From Candidatus Dojkabacteria bacterium (GTDB lineage: Bacteria > Patescibacteriota > Dojkabacteria > B142 > OLB20): a stretch of 64,000 nt of DNA. This document shows positions 3,003 to 39,517 of the stretch, in pieces. Numbering within the stretch: the first letter of the stretch is position 1; each line of letters opens with the position of its first letter. Location of the stretch: NCBI GenBank assembly GCA_035444565.1, contig DAOMOX010000003.1:31488-95487 (forward strand), written 5' to 3'. The notes beneath the pieces were generated by a model. That model was not told where the DNA came from. It made no database searches and saw nothing but the letters and a program-made list of their open reading frames with translations. The translations under genes and the position numbers were made by a program.

Positions 3003-3033
3003 ATCCCGCCCTCAGAAATGAGGGCGGTTTTGC
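3003..3033 (+). terminator. Rho-independent terminator of the rRNA operon
   Basis: CCGCCCTCA-GAAAT-GAGGGCGG followed by TTTTGCGTTT. A GC-rich stem plus U-tract sits directly after the 5S gene. Confidence 0.75.
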
Positions 3034-21976: not shown

Positions 21977-22609
21977 ATGTTTATTGTACTAGACGGAATT
22001 GATGGAGCAGGTAAAGGTCGTCAAAGATCTGAGCTTGTGTCAAAATTATCAAATAATAAGCAACAGATTCAAACAACAGATTTTCCAGACCACCAAGGTG
22101 AAATTTATAAAAATGTAATCCATCCAGCATTACACGAGGAGATTAGTTTAAGCCCACAAGCCTGGTTTTTGGCATTTGTCCTTGACCAACTAATGTGGAA
22201 GAGCAAAATTGATGAAACAATCGGTCAAAAAGATAAGCATTTTATCAGTGATGGATATTTTACAACTACATTGGCCTATCAATGCAAGTTATCTAACGTT
22301 ATGAATGTTGAGGAAGCACTTGAGCTTGCTGATAGGTTTGGAGTCCCTAAGCCAGACTTGGTGATTTTTATTGATGTCGATCCAATAGTCGCAATGAGTA
22401 GGAAAATGATTGAAGAGGGACATGATGAAGGATTAGATATTTTCGAGAGAAATATCACTAAACAACAGAAATTAAGACAGGCGTTCACTGATTTAGCGAA
22501 AGAAAATATCTGGACTGATTGGGAGATTGTAGATGGAAACCTCTCAATTGAAGAAGTTAAGGGTGCAATTATTAAAATCTTAAATAACAAAAAATTATTA
22601 AAAATATGA
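21977..22609 (+). CDS. Thymidylate-kinase-like P-loop kinase (divergent)
   Basis: FIVLDGIDGAGKG resembles the Tmk FIxxEGIDGAGKST motif, but the K is followed by G. The DRY/LID region is replaced by SDGY. It overlaps the next gene by 4 nt. Confidence 0.55.
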   Translation: MFIVLDGIDGAGKGRQRSELVSKLSNNKQQIQTTDFPDHQGEIYKNVIHPALHEEISLSPQAWFLAFVLDQLMWKSKIDETIGQKDKHFISDGYFTTTLAYQCKLSNVMNVEEALELADRFGVPKPDLVIFIDVDPIVAMSRKMIEEGHDEGLDIFERNITKQQKLRQAFTDLAKENIWTDWEIVDGNLSIEEVKGAIIKILNNKKLLKI

Positions 22610-23208
22610 AAAATTATCCAAATATAGAAAAAACATTTTTAATGATAAAGCCTGACGGAGTTAAAAGGGGATTGGTTGGAGATATTTTTTTTCGATTAGA
22701 ACGTGTTGGTTTGAAGCTAGTCTCAGCTAGGATGATTATGGCAACAGAAACACAAGCCAGAAAAAACTATCCAGGGACAAAAGATTGGTTAGTAAAAATG
22801 GGCGAAAAAACCATAAATAATTATAATTCTGATCTTAAGGCAGTCAAAGAGGATCTCGGTACTACTGATACACTTGAAATTGGAACCAATATTTACGAAG
22901 CACTTGTTAAATATCTTATGGAAGGGCCAGTAATTATCTCGGTGTGGGAAGGGAATCATGCGGTTAAAGTTGTCGAAAGGATTGTAGGAAAAACGGATCC
23001 TACAGTGGCGGACATTGGAACAATTCGAAGCGATTATGGATTTGATACTCCTCAGTTTGCAGTAAAATCGGGCAGGATTGTATTTAGAACGCTAATCCAT
23101 AGGTCCGACAGCTCTGAAGAAGCAAAGAGAGAGATAGAACATTGGTTTGGTAAGAATTATAAATATTTAGGAGACTATATACGTACAGATTATACAGACT
23201 CACTTTAA
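22606..23208 (+). CDS. ndk: Nucleoside-diphosphate-kinase-like protein, copy 1 (about 45-aa insertion relative to canonical NDK)
   Basis: TFLMIKPDGVKRGLVGDIFFRLERVGLKLV, GTIRSDYG, and the catalytic-His region LIHRSDSSEEAKREIEHWF. Confidence 0.7.
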   Translation: MKNYPNIEKTFLMIKPDGVKRGLVGDIFFRLERVGLKLVSARMIMATETQARKNYPGTKDWLVKMGEKTINNYNSDLKAVKEDLGTTDTLEIGTNIYEALVKYLMEGPVIISVWEGNHAVKVVERIVGKTDPTVADIGTIRSDYGFDTPQFAVKSGRIVFRTLIHRSDSSEEAKREIEHWFGKNYKYLGDYIRTDYTDSL

Positions 23209-23225
23209 TTGATTTATTCATAAAA

Positions 23226-23822
23226 ATGGAAAAGACACTAGTAATAATTAAACATGATGCAGTGAGTAGGGGATTAATGGGTACGATTATTTCGAGATTC
23301 GAAAGAGTAGGATTAAAAATGGTGGCATTCGAATTTATTCAAAGTACGCAGGACATGGGGCATGGGCACTATCCAACAACTGATGAATGGTTTCAAAAGG
23401 TTGGAGAGAGAACCTTAAACGATTATCTTGCAAAAGGTATCAATCCAAAAGATGAGTTAGGCACAGACAGTCCACTTGAAATTGGTAAACTTGTCAAACA
23501 ATGGAATGTGGAATACCTCACACATGGACCTGTCTTAGCTATCGTTTTTGAAGGCCCGGATGCAGTTACACTAGTTCGTAAGTTGGTAGGTAATACTATC
23601 CCATCAAAAGCTGATCCTGGGACGATTCGAGGTGATTTTGGAATGGATAGTATAGAAATGGCTAATAAGCAAAAACGACCTCTTTACAACTTAATTCACG
23701 CCAGTGGCGAGATATCAGAAGCAGAGGCTGAGATTTCTCTGTGGTTTGGTAATCAAGAGGTGTTTGATTACAAACTACATAGTAATTCCATGACTGGGGT
23801 ATATGGTAAACTAGGAAGTTAA
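23226..23822 (+). CDS. ndk: Nucleoside-diphosphate-kinase-like protein, copy 2
   Basis: LVIIKHDAVSRGLMGTIISRFERVGLKMV, GTIRGDFG, and NLIHASGEISEAEAEISLWF. It is a paralog of the preceding gene. Confidence 0.7.
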   Translation: MEKTLVIIKHDAVSRGLMGTIISRFERVGLKMVAFEFIQSTQDMGHGHYPTTDEWFQKVGERTLNDYLAKGINPKDELGTDSPLEIGKLVKQWNVEYLTHGPVLAIVFEGPDAVTLVRKLVGNTIPSKADPGTIRGDFGMDSIEMANKQKRPLYNLIHASGEISEAEAEISLWFGNQEVFDYKLHSNSMTGVYGKLGS

Positions 23823-24460: not shown

Positions 24461-24625
24461 TACTAAATCAAGATTTCATAAATGAAGTGAAATGAAATCT
24501 TTGATTTTGTGTTGTCCCGCACAATCTAAGATTGATGCGGGACCTCATTTAAATAATAAATAATTAATTTCCTCATTTTCATGCATACCTCTTGGTGCTT
24601 ATCTAATTCGCTAATCCTGCTTTAA

Positions 24626-24784
24626 GGGACAAGTTCGGGTAAACTCACCTGCACTTCATTTGGTTCATTAACCCCTCGATTGATTTTATAGAGCAATGTG
24701 TAGGTCCCGTATAACTCGCTGTGCTCGTTTACGGGACAAGTTCGGGTAAACTCACCTGCACTTCGTTTGGTTCGTTAACCCCTC
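24626..24784. repeat. Two direct copies of a ~52-bp element (GGGACAAGTTCGGGTAAACTCACCTGCACTTC[A/G]TTTGGTTC[A/G]TTAACCCCTC), 107 bp apart
   Basis: Direct reading. The copies are at 24626-24677 and 24733-24784. A hairpin GTCCCGCACAATCTAAGATTGATGCGGGAC lies at 24516-24545. Confidence 0.8.
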
Positions 24785-24823
24785 ACATGATTATACCCCA
24801 CAAGATTATAAGCGTATAGGGCA

Positions 24824-26375: not shown

Positions 26376-27383
26376 ATGGCAGGAAAAAAAATAGCAATAG
26401 ATTTAGGTACAGCGAATTTTTTAGTAGCTGTAGAAGGCAAGGGCATAATTCTAAACGAGCCTACCGTTGTAGCTATTGATATGGACACCAAGAAAGTCCT
26501 TGCAGTAGGCACAAATGCAAAACAAATGTTAGGGAAAGTGCCAGGAAATATTATTGCTCGTAGACCACTTAAACAAGGAGTAATTGCAAGTTATAAGCTG
26601 ACTGAAGCGTTGATTTCTGCTATGCTTGCAAAAGCACTAGGTAGGACTAGGTTCTTTAAACCAGAGGTAATGATTAGTGTTCCTGCTGGCATCACGTCAG
26701 TGGAACAAAGAGCAGTTATAGAAGCTGCAGTTACAGCCGGGGCTGGTAAAGTTTATCTTGTTCCCGAACCAATTGCCGCTGCAATAGGAGCACAGTTGCC
26801 AGTGAGCTCCAGTGCAGGGAATATGATTGTTAATATGGGAGGAGGAACATCGGAAATTGCAATAATTTCAATGAATGGTATTGTCACTTACGAGTCCAAA
26901 AGAGTAGCAGGTGATGCGATTAATGATGCAATAATTAATTTCGTTCGAAAGAAATATTCACTGGCCATTGGTGAGCAAATGGCAGAGCAAATTAAAATTG
27001 ATATTGGAAGTGCTAAGATGATGGACAAACCATTGGAAAAACATGTTCGTGGTAGAGATGTAACAACTGGATTGCCACATTCAATTCATCTAACTTCAAA
27101 TGATTTCGTAGAGCCTATTAATCAAGTACTCAACCAAATTCTTGCATCGATAAAAAATGTCCTTGAGAAAACTCCTCCAGAGTTATCCTCCGATATTATA
27201 GATAGGGGAATAGTATTAAGCGGAGGAACTTCGATATTGAGAAATATTGATGAGCTTTTTACTAATGCAATTGGAGTTCCTTTTCATACCGTAGAAAACC
27301 CACAGGAATGCGTTATAAATGGTATTCTTGAGTCACTAGACCACATTGAGGTACTAAAAGCAGGATTGAGAAGTATTACCTGA
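26376..27383 (+). CDS. mreB: Rod-shape protein MreB (actin-like ATPase), paralog 1
   Basis: KIAIDLGTANFLVAV, NEPTVVAID, and GGGTSEIAIIS motifs. Confidence 0.85.
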   Translation: MAGKKIAIDLGTANFLVAVEGKGIILNEPTVVAIDMDTKKVLAVGTNAKQMLGKVPGNIIARRPLKQGVIASYKLTEALISAMLAKALGRTRFFKPEVMISVPAGITSVEQRAVIEAAVTAGAGKVYLVPEPIAAAIGAQLPVSSSAGNMIVNMGGGTSEIAIISMNGIVTYESKRVAGDAINDAIINFVRKKYSLAIGEQMAEQIKIDIGSAKMMDKPLEKHVRGRDVTTGLPHSIHLTSNDFVEPINQVLNQILASIKNVLEKTPPELSSDIIDRGIVLSGGTSILRNIDELFTNAIGVPFHTVENPQECVINGILESLDHIEVLKAGLRSIT

Positions 27384-32723: not shown

Positions 32724-32875
32724 TACAGGGTCACTAGCCCCGTATTTAATACGGGGGAACCTAGACGAAAGTATTTTGTTATTTACTTGTATACTTTCAT
32801 ACAGGGTCACTAGCCCTGGATTAAATCCAGGGGAACCTAGACGAAAGTATTTTGCTTTTTACTTAGATACTTTCA
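32724..32875 (-). repeat. Two 76-bp tandem pseudo-units, each carrying the 3' ~20 nt of tRNA-Trp (acceptor 3' strand plus T-stem flank) with the T-loop replaced by a hairpin, plus a second hairpin
   Basis: Units begin at 32724 and 32800, and the genuine tRNA at 32876, a period of 76 bp. The shared blocks are CAGGGTCACTAG and AACCTAGACGA[AG]AG. The inserted hairpins differ with compensatory changes (CCCCGTATTTAATACGGGG versus CCCTGGATTAAATCCAGGG). Confidence 0.8.
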
Positions 32876-32877
32876 TA

Positions 32878-33300: not shown

Positions 33301-33439
33301 TATTTTTGTTATTAATAGTTATTTAAATTTTTTATTGAATAATCGTCAATGTGTCGATAATCAAACTTATAAAGATCCCAGATCCCGTAAGATCTTCCTA
33401 TAGTCGATCTACGGGATTACAACTTTTCTAATTTCGCTT

Positions 33440-33555
33440 TGCTCAATAAGAAAAGTTAGTAAGCTGGAGAGGGGACTCGAACCCATGACCGACGGTTTAT
33501 CCCGCTGGAGCTGGGGGAGAGATTCGAACTCTCGACCTACTGTTTATCACTCCTC
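33440..33555 (-). repeat. Partial tRNA copies downstream of tRNA-Thr(UGU): a 37-nt exact duplicate of its 3' end (33463-33499) and a second T-arm/acceptor-like fragment (33500-33555)
   Basis: GCTGGAGAGGGGACTCGAACCCATGACCGACGGTTTA occurs at 33463 and again at the start of the real tRNA (33557). The neighbouring fragment contains GAGAGATTCGAACTCTC (T-arm-like) but no D or anticodon arm. Confidence 0.75.
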
Positions 33556-33628
33556 AGCTGGAGAGGGGACTCGAACCCATGACCGACGGTTTACAAAACC
33601 GTTGCTCTACCAACTGAGCTACTCCAGC
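33556..33628 (-). tRNA. tRNA-Thr (anticodon UGU)
   Basis: The reverse complement is GCTGGAGTAGCTCAGTTGGTAGAGCAACGGTTTTGTAAACCGTCGGTCATGGGTTCGAGTCCCCTCTCCAGCT, with anticodon loop TTTGTAA. Confidence 0.85.
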
Positions 33629-33640
33629 TGAGGAGTGACT

Positions 33641-33758
33641 CTAACCAACTGCCTGTCCCACGTAGCTTAAGCGAAGCGGGAAGCTATCCCAGCTCCTGCG
33701 GGACTCTACCTAACTGCTTGTCCACCGTAGCTTTAGCGTAGGTGGAAGCTACTCCAGC
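33641..33758 (-). repeat. Two ~60-nt elements upstream of tRNA-Thr(UGU), each beginning (in tRNA orientation) with the tRNA's first ~12 nt (GCTGG[AG][GA]TAGCT) and followed by a covarying hairpin; a third copy sits upstream of tRNA-Thr(GGU) at 38070-38135
   Basis: Compare CCCACGTAGCTTAAGCGAAGCGGG, CCACCGTAGCTTTAGCGTAGGTGG, and (at 38090) CCTTCGTAGCTTTAGCGAAGAAGG. The loops are constant and the stems carry compensatory changes. Confidence 0.7.
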
Positions 33759-33973
33759 ATAGTATATTTATTATAAAGAGCTATTCTAATCTTTTGCCTG
33801 CCAGAGGCAGACACTCAATTCATCTACAACTCACCACGTTCGTTGGATGAATTGGTGCAGAGGGAGGGATTCCCCATGCAATCTCACTACGTTCGATTCA
33901 CGGAGTAAACTTCTCATCCCGATCGATAATTCGAACAAAACGTTTTTATTATAACGAGCTTTTACAAATTAAT

Positions 33974-34356: not shown

Positions 34357-34431
34357 GGGCTTATAGTTTAATTGGTAAAATACCGCATTCGCATTGCGGA
34401 GCTATGGGTTCGATTCCCATTAAGTCCACCA
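34357..34431 (+). tRNA. tRNA-Ala (anticodon CGC) with genomically encoded CCA
   Basis: Acceptor GGGCTTA/TAAGTCC with G3:U70, anticodon loop TTCGCAT, and T-arm ATGGGTTCGATTCCCAT followed by ACCA. An imperfect long hairpin starts right after the CCA (34432-34470). Confidence 0.75.
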
Positions 34432-34622
34432 GTGGTGTGTGAGTGAAACGAACACAGACCACTGGTAGGACTCTGAACTAGATTCAGGGTCTTTAAAAGT
34501 CCAGCGAACAAAGTGAGCTGATGACAAATTGAGTGTAAAGTAAAATTTCGTAGAAATTTGTACGGGACCTTTGCTGGTAAAATCAAATTTTTTTATCATC
34601 TAATTAATTCTTTGTAATTCAA

Positions 34623-34926: not shown

Positions 34927-35208
34927 ATGTGCAACTTATATATATTATTATGCAGGGACAACTCACTTTATACAGGTGTTGCTAAAGATATTGAAGAGCG
35001 TTTAGAAGTACACAATAGTGGCAAAGGGTCAAAATACGTTAACAGCAGGAAGCCATTTAAATTAATTTATACGGAATGTTTCGAGAGCTGGTCTGAAGCT
35101 TTGAAACGAGAGATTGAGATTAAGAAATGGAGTAGGGAGGAGAAAATAAATCGTCTTAAATTAAATATTGGGAATCTTCGAAACACCCCCCATATTGTCC
35201 GTAAATAG
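34927..35208 (+). CDS. GIY-YIG nuclease-superfamily small protein, second copy
   Basis: LYILLCRDNSLYTGVAKDIEERLEVHNSGKGSKY and a later conserved Glu. It is a paralog of the rRNA-embedded ORF at 2244. Confidence 0.65.
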   Translation: MCNLYILLCRDNSLYTGVAKDIEERLEVHNSGKGSKYVNSRKPFKLIYTECFESWSEALKREIEIKKWSREEKINRLKLNIGNLRNTPHIVRK

Positions 35209-37321: not shown

Positions 37322-37496
37322 TTAATATAATTTTAAATATTTATTTATTACTTTATCACTATACACTTTATTCTGAAAAGCATTGAAGCGGGGGAACTCA
37401 AGTCGATGAATTTGACAAACAATTGGTAGGGGAGATCCCGTACAACTCCTTTTAGTCGTTTACTGGATTACAGAGTTTCTAAATTCATGTGTGTCT

Positions 37497-38020
37497 TGAA
37501 AAGATCCTCGATAATTTCGCTTCGCTCAATTTCGAGGATTATTGATTTGCTAAGCTCATGCTTCGCTAAGAATATGCCTTGTATTAGATCCCGTACAACT
37601 CCTTTCAGTCGTTTACGGGATTACAACTTTTCTAAACTCGCAAGCTCGTTAAGAAAAGTTAGTAAGCTGGAACAGAGATTCCTAAACCAGCTGTTGGTGA
37701 AGAATGAACCTTACAGCTGGTTAGTCCCTGCCTTCAGATTTTTATCTGAAGGAGGGGAGAACTCAATTGGACCGTATTTAGATAAACAAAACAAGGGAAG
37801 ATCCTGTGCAATTAAATGTAGTGTTAATTGAAAAGATCCTCGATAATTTCGCTTCGCTCAATTTCGAGGATTATTGATTTGCTAAGCTCATGCTTCGCTA
37901 AGAATATGCCTTGTATTAGATCCCGTACAACTCCTTTCAGTCGTTTACGGGATTACAACTTTTCTAAACTCGCAAGCTCGTTAAGAAAAGTTAGTAAGCT
38001 GGAACAGAGATTCGAACTCT
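37497..38020. repeat. ~184-bp direct repeat (37497-37680 and 37838-38020) whose end contains the last 16 nt of tRNA-Thr(GGU); a further partial copy lies at 37415-37470
   Basis: The two ORF-track products (37487 and 37828) share an identical 60-aa string, so the DNA is duplicated. Each copy ends in GCTGGAACAGAGATTC, the reverse complement of the tRNA 3' end, but only the second copy continues into a complete tRNA. Confidence 0.85.
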
Positions 38021-38069
38021 GGACCCCACCCTTACCATGGGTGTGCTCTGCCAACTGAGCTATTCCAGC
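37997..38069 (-). tRNA. tRNA-Thr (anticodon GGU)
   Basis: The reverse complement is GCTGGAATAGCTCAGTTGGCAGAGCACACCCATGGTAAGGGTGGGGTCCAGAGTTCGAATCTCTGTTCCAGCT. Confidence 0.85.
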
Positions 38070-38452
38070 GTAGCTGGTCTCAAAACCAACTGCTTGTCCT
38101 TCGTAGCTTTAGCGAAGAAGGAAGCTATTCCAGCATGAGAAAAATTATAACAGAAAACAATTGAAATGAGCATAAAAAAGCCCTACTGCAGTTCCCTGAT
38201 AGAAGAATTGGAAACTCCTAAACCACAAGTGGTTGTCCTCAGTCCCATCTACACGTAGACAGGAAGATTTCGGATTCCCTATTGAAAGTGTCGAGTTCAA
38301 TTTGATCTATCAAAAGAGCATTGGTAGGGCAGTAAAGTATATCAAAATTGAATCCCAAGTAACAATAAATCTTCTGATATTGCGCAAACAACTAGAACTC
38401 TAGGTGGAATATTCCCTGTTACAAGTGGTAGAATATTGAACTTAACTTACCA

Positions 38453-39517
38453 TTGAACTCTGTGATAATTTTTAATAAGCTGCTCCCTGCTATAACTCAT
38501 GATGTAGGTATTGATTTGGGTACCACTAATACAATTGTATCTATAAAAGGTCACGGGATTGTGGTCAGTGAGCCATCTGTTGTTGCTATAAATAAAGATA
38601 CTAAAAAGATTCTAGCCGTCGGAGAGGAAGCCAGAAGAATGATAGGTAGAACTCCAGCAGCAATTATTGCGGTTAGACCACTTAAAGATGGCGTTATTTC
38701 CGACTTCGATTCTACAGAAGCGATGATTAGATATTTTATCCATAGAGTTTACGATGAATACCCTAAATTATTAAAAATAAAACGACCTAGAGTTGTAATA
38801 GGAATCCCTTCATCTATAACAGAAGTAGAGGCTAGAGCGGTAATTGATGCTGCTACATCCGCAGGAGCAAGAAAAGTATATATCGTGGAGGAGCCAATGG
38901 CAGCTGCGATTGGGGCTGGTTTGGCGATAGACGACGCTTCAGGAAGTATGGTCGTAGACATTGGCGGAGGAACTACTGACATTGCTGTCATTTCACTCGG
39001 TGGGATTGTTGTAGATACAACTGTACGGATAGCTGGAAATGAAATTGATGACGAAATATTAAATTATGTTAAAAATAAATATAACTTACAAATTGGTCTC
39101 AAATTTGCCGAGGATGTGAAAATAGCAATTGGATCAGTCAAACCATTAAAAAAAGAAAGAGAAATGGAGGTAAAGGGGAGAGATATGATTACGGGACTTC
39201 CAAAAATTATTACACTTACTAGTGTTGAGGTTCGTGAAGCAATGATCAAAGTTATCGATAAAATTGTTGAGTCAATCAAAGATGCTCTCGAGCAAACACC
39301 ACCTGAAATACTCTCAGACTTATTGGATAAGGGGATTACACTGGCTGGTGGTGGTGCTCTTATAGAGGGCTTGGACCGATATTTGGAGGAAAAGTTGCAA
39401 ACACCCGTGATTGTGGCTGACGATCCACTCACATGTGTAGTTCGAGGTACTGCAACATTACTAGAAGAAATCGATCTTTTAGAGCGACTCCAGTTAAAAG
39501 ATAGAGATATTTTTTAA
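38453..39517 (+). CDS. mreB: Rod-shape protein MreB, paralog 2 (the copy linked to mreCD-pbp2)
   Basis: DVGIDLGTTNTIVS and EPSVVAIN. It has the same architecture as 26376-27383. Confidence 0.85.
   Translation: MNSVIIFNKLLPAITHDVGIDLGTTNTIVSIKGHGIVVSEPSVVAINKDTKKILAVGEEARRMIGRTPAAIIAVRPLKDGVISDFDSTEAMIRYFIHRVYDEYPKLLKIKRPRVVIGIPSSITEVEARAVIDAATSAGARKVYIVEEPMAAAIGAGLAIDDASGSMVVDIGGGTTDIAVISLGGIVVDTTVRIAGNEIDDEILNYVKNKYNLQIGLKFAEDVKIAIGSVKPLKKEREMEVKGRDMITGLPKIITLTSVEVREAMIKVIDKIVESIKDALEQTPPEILSDLLDKGITLAGGGALIEGLDRYLEEKLQTPVIVADDPLTCVVRGTATLLEEIDLLERLQLKDRDIF

Follow-up and report, generated by a model that had tools for sequence, protein, structure and literature searches.

Within a 64,000-nt stretch of a Candidatus Dojkabacteria genome (contig DAOMOX010000003.1 of assembly GCA_035444565.1, positions 31,488 to 95,487; the whole stretch analysed here, hereafter the window), split copies of tRNA genes were found around and beside intact ones. 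Such fragments accompany all three tRNA-Thr genes, tRNA-Tyr, and tRNA-Trp of one Dojkabacteria-like lineage. They break at loop positions of the tRNA, namely 12/13 or 16/17 (D arm), 24/36 (anticodon arm), and 55-57 (T loop), and each break abuts a palindromic module; the intact tRNA copy between or beside the fragments supplies the function. Here it is proposed, with a probability of about one half, that the fragments are DNA-level relics of tRNA copies that were disrupted by palindromic elements resembling repetitive extragenic palindromes (REP) or miniature inverted-repeat transposable elements (MITE), followed by local duplication. Neither classic attachment (att) scars nor a working leader/trailer RNA is as likely as such relics, and the arrangement is probably not a dedicated RNA device, because presence and absence of the modules, their insertion and deletion between strains, a foreign tRNA allele, and an orientation-free hairpin distribution all argue for processes acting on DNA.

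Nested halves around tRNA-Thr(UGU)

All features of the tRNA loci given below are on the minus strand. The intact tRNA-Thr(UGU) (33556..33628, tRNA search and Rfam) is surrounded, in tRNA sense, in the order 5'A - L1 - 5'B - L2 - tRNA - L2' - 3'B - L1' - 3'A, a nesting that was missing, together with the foreign origin of relic 3'B, from the preliminary description of this locus. On the 5' side, unit A (33694..33758, 65 nt) consists of GCTGGAGTAGCT, a 30-nt hairpin (33717-33746), a D-loop remnant, and L1 TCCCGCAGGA (33694-33703), and unit B (33629..33693, also 65 nt) consists of GCTGGGATAGCT, a 30-nt hairpin (33652-33681), a D-loop remnant, and L2 TCACTCCTCA (33629-33638). On the 3' side, a repeat search delimited a relic block (33462..33555) with L2' (33547-33555), relic B (33509-33546), L1' (33500-33508), and relic A (33462-33499), the last being identical at 38/38 nt to the 3' half of the intact gene. 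Both 5' halves end at G24 and both 3' halves begin at T36, the third anticodon base, so the outer halves lack positions 25-35 and no tRNA can be formed from them.

Relic B corresponds to positions 36-73 of a different tRNA-Thr(UGU) allele and matches, at 38/38 nt, the 3' half of the working tRNA-Thr(UGU) of a related locus (L172), which indicates that it derives from a once-functional allele of a related lineage. This relic is now split around an A-type gene, with the whole enclosed by split A-type halves. A change in the acceptor stem of relic B had been taken as compensatory and as a sign of RNA selection; this was withdrawn, as L172 shows another allele with one mutation. The tRNA-Thr(UGU) of another relative (L171) is A-type without any shells.

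The flanks are complementary to each other. L2 and L2' lengthen the acceptor stem of tRNA-Thr(UGU) to 17 perfect pairs (33547-33563 with 33622-33638, 100% complementary), and L1/L1' with the B acceptor are 94% complementary over 16 nt; the tRNA-Thr of L172 has complementary flanks too. The predicted RNA fold of the region reproduces the nesting exactly (-133.8 kcal/mol, z = -5.6). Across the three 65-nt units of the window, the hairpin stems differ by paired changes (ACC/GGT, CGC/GTG, and TTC/GAA). The trailer hairpins beyond the relics (33382..33457, repeat and hairpin search) are paralogous to those of the tRNA-Thr(GGU) trailer; the related hairpin that had been noticed near this gene was found, its position being 33382-33417 and not 33377-33410.

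The 186-nt repeat at tRNA-Thr(GGU)

The intact tRNA-Thr(GGU) is encoded at 37997..38069 (ARAGORN; Rfam tRNA, 63.7 bits), with CCA not encoded. The repeat search returned a direct repeat of 193 nt at 37489-37681 and 37821-38013 (98%, spacing 332), with a perfectly identical core of 186 nt (37496-37681 and 37828-38013) that occurs exactly twice in the window. A repeat of 184 bp had been reported here before; it exists, at a slightly greater length and with its second interval (37838-38020) displaced by about 8 nt. In tRNA sense, both copies begin with GAATCTCTGTTCCAGCT, i.e., tRNA positions 57-73 from G57, and on the plus strand both end with the complement of these positions, AGCTGGAACAGAGATTC. 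The proximal copy (37828..38013) comprises tRNA positions 57-73 (37997-38013) and a 169-nt trailer with three hairpins (37957-37992, 37920-37953, and 37836-37871), and it alone is joined to the rest of the tRNA, as had been described. The distal copy (37496..37681) starts with a 17-nt 3' relic of tRNA-Thr(GGU) (37665-37681, positions 57-73); this beginning at the canonical T-loop position bears out the att-like layout seen at first inspection. Between the copies is a 146-nt non-coding filler (37682..37827) that abuts the 3' relic and contains hairpins at 37685-37722 (AACCAGCTGT...ACAGCTGGTT) and 37725-37758. The degenerate third copy of the trailer hairpin (89% identity with the other two) was located at 37433..37486, in place of the 37415-37470 given previously.

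Upstream of the gene, repeat and hairpin-pattern searches identified one 65-nt 5' unit (38070..38134), identical in the close relative DTUPAT2 (L018) and present as a tandem pair in L171. Its first piece (38123-38134) is the 12 nt of tRNA-Thr(GGU) positions 1-12, its second (38093-38122) the 30-nt palindrome TCCTTC-TTCGCTAAAGCTAC-GAAGGA-CAAG, and its third (38070-38092) a 23-nt tail with the D-loop remnant CAGTTGG... and ACCAGCTAC. As CAGTTGG... is the sequence after position 12 in the tRNA itself and resumes directly after the hairpin, the unit reads as the 5' part of a tRNA with a clean 30-nt insertion between T12 and C13. The family of 5' mimics proposed earlier was recovered, with 38084-38134 being 86% and 78% like 33643-33693 and 33708-33758, and the hairpin pattern has three matches in the window compared to none in 100 shuffles. 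A TATAAT hexamer, TGn-extended (TGTTATAAT, 38144..38149), was read from the sequence 9 nt upstream of the first base of the unit; it is a possible -10 element with the 5' unit as the transcript start, and having no -35 match it is not listed by the consensus promoter scan. The predicted RNA fold of this region gave z = -7.3 against shuffled sequence.

Relics of tRNA-Tyr and tRNA-Trp

About 100 nt downstream of tRNA-Tyr, a 17-nt 3' relic of this gene (33856..33872, positions 57 to the end) is preceded by an imperfect hairpin, and the same relic was found in DTUPAT2 and L171. Comparison of the window with L171 (1861-1877) shows C versus T in the relic where the functional tRNA-Tyr genes also differ (acceptor pair 7:66, G-C versus A-T); from this shared state, the relic and the gene have changed in concert. 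For tRNA-Trp, two tandem 76-nt 3' relic units (32726..32877) each contain an AT-rich hairpin, a T arm with a loop hairpin (CCCTGGATTTAATCCAGGG or CCCCGTATTAAATACGGGG), and, after it, the acceptor 3' strand; their T-loop hairpins show compensatory differences. DTUPAT2 has two such units with different hairpin variants, L171 has one, and L172 and L173 have no room for any.

Variation among strains and relatives

The arrangement around the 186-nt repeat is 100% identical in an ENA contig (L161, 94.8 kb, 37x coverage), which is possibly the source of the window itself, and contigs of two other samples have their first base 55 nt and 30 nt into the distal copy, as is typical of contigs that break at a repeat. 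In DTUPAT2 (GTDB contig JAJTYI010000009.1), with flanking genes 95-99% identical to the window, the tRNA-Thr(GGU) locus has the same 5' unit and 83 nt of shared trailer, then a 284-aa Inositol_P gene, and neither the 3' relic nor the duplication. Its tRNA-Thr(UGU) locus keeps the nesting; unit A carries a different, double hairpin of about 88 nt after T16, not the 30-nt hairpin after T12, and in the trailer the first hairpin differs from the window by three compensatory pairs and the second is swapped for another hairpin type. A Logan contig (L166, Nudix protein 98% identical) matches the window except for two indels. In one, a second, different 30-nt hairpin (CCCTCC-TTCGCAATAGCTAC-GGAGGA-CAGG) is cleanly inserted beside the first, with at most 1 nt of ambiguity; in the other, there is a single 186-nt unit, and a 35-nt sequence X replaces the proximal trailer.

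L171 (NusG 88% identical) has two tandem 65-nt 5' units, and its tRNA-Thr(GGU) is followed by a sequence that begins like X (TTTCTTAGAAA...), then by a homologue of the filler hairpin, in which one change is compensatory, and by the 17-nt relic and trailer. Of the filler in the window, L166 shares the tRNA-distal 87 nt at 100% identity and L171 shares 43 nt at 86% identity. In both L166 and L171, the repeat around the non-coding segment is 17 nt only. These two layouts indicate that the order 'tRNA - X - filler - relic - trailer' came first and that the proximal trailer copy was added recently, in agreement with the 100% identity of the proximal to the distal copy. Only in the strain of the window has '3' relic plus trailer' recently been copied once more, as the 186-nt repeat. 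Another locus (L167, Nudix 85% identical) resembles DTUPAT2, with the tRNA, the trailer, and the Inositol_P gene, no 3' relic, and 1.5 5' units. The loci of L172 and L173 (NusG 89% and 84% identical) are compact and have no space for the units, with Tyr-Thr spacers of 5-43 nt versus 344 nt in the window, Thr-rpmG spacers of 30-45 nt versus 269 nt, and Trp-secE spacers of 43-68 nt versus 222 nt. Strains with 95-100% identity differ by the clean gain, loss, or swap of whole hairpins and trailer units.

A hairpin family across phyla

The 30-nt hairpin has the consensus TCCNCC-TTCGCTAAAGCTAC-GGNGGA-CARG. A scan of a genome collection in which TAGCT was demanded before the hairpin returned 24 loci versus about 0.07 expected (by our own estimate), in Patescibacteria, Planctomycetota, Verrucomicrobiota, Omnitrophota, Bacteroidota, Nitrospirales, Bdellovibrionales, and Gammaproteobacteria, and 63/69 stem cells of these genome hits are paired. 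In at least 12 of the 24, the hairpin directly follows 11 nt that match, with at most 1 mismatch, the start of a tRNA located 55-148 nt downstream, the tRNAs being those for Val, Met, Ile, Asn, and Thr; several further loci are at contig ends or have an imperfect match to the tRNA 5' end. The duplicated 5' stretch often takes in a few bases upstream of +1 (L007, L016, and L021), which points to duplication of DNA, and L016 has remnants of an entire upstream tRNA copy, i.e., a pseudo-tRNA before the real one. 3' relics with a T-loop hairpin, some of them then followed by a repeated trailer as in the window, are present in L003, L007, L008, and L067.

A scan for the hairpin alone, with no tRNA flank required, gave at least 120 metagenome loci (31-71% G+C) and 16 viral contigs. 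The hairpin was found upstream of tRNAs for Val, Met, Ile, Asn, Arg, and Thr, and most copies are away from tRNAs. Among the matches listed, the left flank is weakly constrained as G-C-(T/A), the CARG after the stem is conserved though not demanded (G at +4 in 115/131 copies), and 100 of 136 copies have a Watson-Crick free stem pair, with 55 expected. Within the same matches, copies are under-represented in long open reading frames (ORFs; 44% versus 78% for random positions) and have no preferred orientation relative to neighbouring ORFs, and direct repeats of 6-10 nt, often heptamer tandem arrays, flank 13/131 copies versus 0.5% in controls. Also among the matches listed, 12 of 139 copies are within 60 nt of a tRNA, where 1.7 were expected and the maximum in 1000 random placements was 7, and the CARG end is toward the tRNA in 12 of 14 nearby cases; this proximity, about sevenfold over expectation, arises from a scan with no tRNA requirement. 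Several copies are nested in the loop of another copy, directly after ...AAGCT, which is the AGCT| context of tRNA T12|C13, and two homologous phage ORFs each run in frame through an intact copy, at differing positions. The earlier suggestion of a tiny non-autonomous element specific to tRNA-Thr genes holds for its small size, its non-autonomy, and its strain-polymorphic copy number; the hairpin is found across phyla and is not specific to Thr.

An all-against-all BLAST of the ORFs of 160 loci for a recurrent neighbour protein that could serve as a mobilising enzyme returned only generic families. The 48-nt consensus had no match in the plasmid collection and, in the phage collection, only chance-level Thermus phage matches in a tail sheath gene. 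Literature searches on tRNA-flanking fragments, leader mimics, tRNA oddities in the candidate phyla radiation (CPR), and literal DNA or peptide strings found no description, and the hairpin is not mentioned in a REP survey (PMC3733652) or a MITE survey (PMC11602168). A pseudoknot (GTAGCTT/AAGCTAC with TCCNCC/GGNGGA) was considered and rejected: its connecting loops would have zero length, which makes the two helices mutually exclusive, and position 7 of the tRNA copy shows no covariation with the loop C, the base being fixed by the search pattern.

Some hairpins are located inside tandem arrays of 7-10 nt (CTGGCAT x3, CCTTGTG xN, and AATATTC xN), often with the array on both sides (L030, L052, L064, L076, L092, L095, L132, L142, L149, and L152). 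A second cross-phylum palindrome (…GTCATTGCGAGGAGC…GCTCCTCGCAATGAC…) was observed near hairpin copies and downstream of tRNA-Met (L016 at about 640-830, L041, L123, and L046/L127), in genomes that hold several such cross-phylum palindromes. Furthermore, an Omnitrophota locus (L005, 7318-7388) and a Planctomycetia locus (L014) have in common the motif TAATTCGACTA-[hairpin]-TAGTCTCATTGA before a tRNA, which may represent a larger conserved module.

Proposed origin and alternative explanations

In the proposed DNA-level origin, the palindromic modules would be moved in trans by an enzyme not encoded in the window, with a preference for AGCT| sites and for single-stranded hairpin loops. With a preference for hairpin loops, tRNA genes offer three targets, and since each of these genes is probably essential and present once, the survivors would be limited to insertions in a redundant copy and to those bringing a replacement tRNA, leaving half-tRNA relics. 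Unequal recombination between short repeats (the 12-17 nt tRNA ends, 65-nt units, and trailers) would later alter copy number, the 186-nt duplication presumably being the latest such event. Transcription together with the tRNA, starting from the TATAAT at 38149-38144, is probable for the modules, which normal end processing would then remove. Mobility is suggested by distribution and polymorphism rather than by an observed mechanism.

Several points weigh against this origin. Target-site duplications are seen at only about 10% of the listed copies, no mobilising enzyme was identified in the window, the related loci, or the neighbouring ORFs, and no clean pair of empty and filled sites was seen outside the Dojkabacteria lineage. 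The hairpins of the window are solely at tRNA-Thr genes, and all five 5' units are exactly 65 nt long; the spread of a single unit from one Thr gene to another would explain this more readily than separate insertions each time. The identical breaks of A and B (G24/T36) suggest a site-specific process outside the model, and the Tyr relic tracking its own tRNA hints at constraint or concerted evolution. Some relics persist over about 12% NusG divergence in a streamlined genome, the nested RNA folds are far more stable than shuffled sequence (z = -5.6 and -7.3), and the near-invariance of the loop across phyla has no account in the model. The G24/T36 breaks, the fixed length, the restriction to Thr, the loop invariance, and the Tyr tracking keep two alternatives in play, a recombinase for the 3' relics and a leader/trailer RNA.

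As to the former, the relics may be decayed scars of tyrosine-integrase elements that inserted into tRNA genes at G57 of the T loop or T36 of the anticodon loop, supplied a new 3' end, and were then almost completely deleted, like a cis-mobilizable element (CIME), with attL/attR-like direct repeats left around 120-150 nt of non-coding DNA. This is considered unlikely. Positions of the T36 and G57 type are reportedly the two classical sublocations of integrase crossover in tRNA genes, and the 3' relics begin precisely there (T36 in UGU A and B, 33499 and 33546; G57 in GGU, 37681, and Tyr, 33872). L166 and L171 have about 120-140 nt of non-coding DNA with a 17-nt tRNA end on either side, DTUPAT2 and L167 resemble a precise empty site with the trailer directly after the tRNA, and the T-stem strand of the L171 relic is unlike that of the resident tRNA, as replacement of the 3' end predicts. 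However, there is no integrase in the 64 kb or in any related locus examined, and the 5' relics upstream, the hairpins exactly at the breaks, and the symmetric nesting are left unexplained. The repeat in the window also runs 169 nt past the tRNA, and the 5' halves end at G24 without the 5' strand of the anticodon stem, which a crossover in the anticodon loop would not leave.

The latter alternative, a functional precursor RNA, is considered slightly less likely: the 5' unit, with or without a 3' relic, would be co-transcribed and fold as a tRNA-like clamp by pairing of the mimic acceptor strands with each other and of L with L'. In this way, processing by RNase P, RNase III, or RNase Z would be guided, timed, or regulated, or tRNA-binding factors would meet a decoy. 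It would account for the TATAAT placed 9 nt before the 5' unit with nothing promoter-like between the unit and the tRNA, for the nested folds being predicted as drawn, and for the lengthened acceptor stem of tRNA-Thr(UGU) and the complementary flanks in L172. It also agrees with stems that keep pairing through compensatory changes between strains and paralogues, with 5' units of constant length that each hold the first 12 nt of their own tRNA, and with the Tyr relic following the acceptor change of its tRNA. Against a precursor RNA, close relatives with the same operon (L172 and L173) lack the architecture, copy number and hairpin content vary between strains 98-100% identical, and the outer halves, without positions 25-35 or 25-56, cannot form a tRNA. 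Moreover, the hairpin is found across phyla in either orientation to genes, in unrelated intergenic DNA, and inside ORFs, complementary arms are also kept by DNA palindromes with no RNA role, and no Rfam family was matched. That the 186-nt duplication is an assembly artefact, either a mis-expanded repeat or a chimera of strain variants, is very improbable. Several strain variants of the locus do co-exist in public data and short-read contigs break at the repeat, but breaks 55 nt and 30 nt inside it are what a true two-copy repeat is expected to give, the L161 contig has the identical arrangement (with the proviso on its origin given above), the 58 nt after the proximal copy are unique to the arrangement and the right flanks of the two copies differ, and the same design is present in other phyla (L003). 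Tandem duplication and decay was also tried as an explanation for everything and rejected: it fits L016 and the tandem 65-nt units and cannot yield the symmetric A-B-tRNA-B-A order. The 'tRNA-end-primed' duplication suggested in the preliminary description is contradicted by the absence of TGG before the relic, which leaves no primer-binding site for a CCA-ended tRNA, and by repeats that include non-tRNA flanks.

A bolder extension of the DNA-level relics, put forward tentatively and as something that may well not hold, is that the hairpin is an undescribed, cross-phylum miniature palindromic mobile DNA homing to the loops of tRNA genes (D arm, anticodon arm, and T loop) and driving a 'matryoshka' replacement of tRNAs. 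In a surviving event, the element would carry or recruit an intact tRNA, which might at times be a foreign allele between short inverted repeats, and the old gene would become split halves; tRNA genes could then act as minimal selfish cassettes in naturally competent CPR bacteria.

Comparison with known systems

Both small palindromic repeats and att scars at tRNA genes are already known. To our knowledge and from the searches made, the cross-phylum element, its polar link to tRNA genes and two-sided half-tRNA relics, and the nested tRNA-in-tRNA order are new. Archaeal split and intron-containing tRNAs (Nanoarchaeum, Caldivirga; bulge-helix-bulge, BHB) are similar in having tRNA halves, complementary flanks at the break, and a helix at the anticodon-stem position; they differ from the present case, which is in a bacterium, with halves lacking positions 25-35 (or 25-56), an intact tRNA inside, and absence from close relatives. 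Rickettsia palindromic elements (RPE) and the GC clusters of yeast mitochondria are short palindromes with no known transposase, tolerated in ORFs and RNA genes, nested, and strain-polymorphic. The hairpin shares with them its short palindromic form, nesting, in-frame tolerance, and strain polymorphism; unlike the hairpin, they are confined to one lineage or organelle and are not reported with half-tRNA duplications. The retrotransposons Ty1/Ty3 and Dictyostelium TRE5/TRE3 are guided by Pol III factors to specific positions and orientations beside tRNA genes. The hairpin likewise accumulates in an oriented way beside tRNA genes, but it is a 30-nt bacterial DNA palindrome with no known machinery.

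In common with tRNA att sites and CIMEs, there are direct repeats of the tRNA 3' part from the T or anticodon loop, with an intact tRNA at one flank and its displaced 3' end at the opposite flank, and relatives with an apparently precise empty site. Unlike in att sites, there is no integrase, cargo, or ORF between the copies, where the 146 nt are non-coding, the repeat is not confined to the tRNA core in the strain of the window (169 nt more past the tRNA), and there are upstream 5' relics, hairpins at the breaks, and nested halves of a foreign allele. MITEs are defined by terminal inverted repeats together with a target-site duplication of fixed length; the arms of the hairpin are inverted repeats, and the direct repeats flanking 13/131 copies range from 6 to 10 nt. 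Similarly to REP and REPIN sequences (mobilised by RAYT, i.e., IS200/IS605-like Y1 transposases), which are imperfect palindromes of 20-40 nt, the hairpin is 30 nt long with covarying stems, is mostly intergenic and occasionally in genes, has no transposase inside, and varies in abundance between strains. REP super-families are distributed in several phyla, including the PVC group, and are defined by a GTAG or CGTC tag at the unpaired end (PMC3733652). The hairpin has no such end tag, with GTAG only in its loop on the opposite strand, and its copies form no inverted doublets. REP/REPIN are present in many copies per genome along with a RAYT gene; in the 64-kb window, three hairpin copies, all at tRNA-Thr, and no RAYT/Y1 gene were seen. 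The loop of the hairpin is near-identical across phyla, unlike REP families, which are usually lineage-specific, and it is tied in a polar manner to tRNA genes and half-tRNA relics.

If these elements are mobile as proposed, the sharing of a near-invariant loop from CPR to Planctomycetota and phages means that a mechanism of very broad host range or a universal target must exist, and tRNA genes of streamlined genomes would be overwritten from within, leaving datable fossils of earlier alleles that document how tRNA genes of uncultivated bacteria were replaced and exchanged horizontally. If the 5' units are functional leaders instead, they would be a new kind of tRNA-precursor control element. 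In practice, short-read assemblies are interrupted by the relics and hairpins of tRNA loci, which may also pass for att sites of missing islands and give rise to spurious ORFs (37487 and 37828, with peptides such as SFAKATADK); these two ORFs belong to no family and are absent or broken in sister strains, as expected from their prior dismissal as genes.

Gene content of the window and other observations

The window is a bacterial chromosome segment with 35.9% G+C that contains 23S and 5S rRNA and seven tRNAs (ARAGORN, Rfam), as well as the cluster rpmG-tRNA-Trp-secE-nusG-rplKAJL; the named relatives of its NusG are Candidatus Dojkabacteria (CPR/Patescibacteria), and an exact-match search with its MreB returned no record. 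A Pfam scan of about 50 ORFs of the 64-kb window identified housekeeping genes, among them comEA, comEC, dprA, the CCA-adding enzyme, and RNase J, with five ORFs of the window lacking any Pfam match and no integrase, transposase, or other recombinase domain, which upholds the earlier remark that none of these, nor any cargo, is located between the repeats. No integrase was seen in the related loci examined either. With Rfam 15, at the gathering score and at E <= 10, only tRNA, rRNA, and chance-level matches were obtained, none of them on the 5' units, relics, or trailers.

The 23S rRNA match (1-2614) covers 2225 model positions over 2614 nt, corresponding to about 390 nt of insertions, and the region includes a 174-aa ORF without a Pfam match on the minus strand (1386-1910) and a GC-rich hairpin TCCCGCCCTCA...TGAGGGCGGGA (1226-1265). 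The 5S rRNA is flanked by hairpins of one family, CCGCCCT...AGGGCGG (2730-2755, 2844-2890, and 3006-3027); the 3' arm of the 13-bp stem at 2844-2890 is the 5S 5' end, so the upstream sequence mimics the 5S 3' end. The tRNA-Ala(CGC) (34428-34466 region) is the sole tRNA of its neighbourhood with an encoded CCA, and its 3' end is paired with a downstream complement in a hairpin (ACCAGTGGT...ACCACTGGT); similar CCA-sequestering hairpins follow tRNAs in the metagenome loci L028, L063, L077, and L134. Next to this tRNA, a stand-alone GIY-YIG protein of 93 aa (34927-35208) keeps its position in all relatives examined (L161-L166 and L171), with a possible link to the instability of the tRNA locus. 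Upstream of tRNA-Arg(CCT), the region 24620-24790 has two direct repeats of about 60 nt and 80 nt (GAGGGGTTAAYGAACCAAAYGAAGTGCAGGTGAGTTTACCCGAACTTGTCCC...) and GTCCCG...CGGGAC hairpins, with no tRNA mimic evident at these repeats. Paralogues of nucleoside-diphosphate kinase are in tandem at 22606-23822, in a small CPR genome, and two MreB paralogues are encoded at 26376-27383 and 38453-39517.

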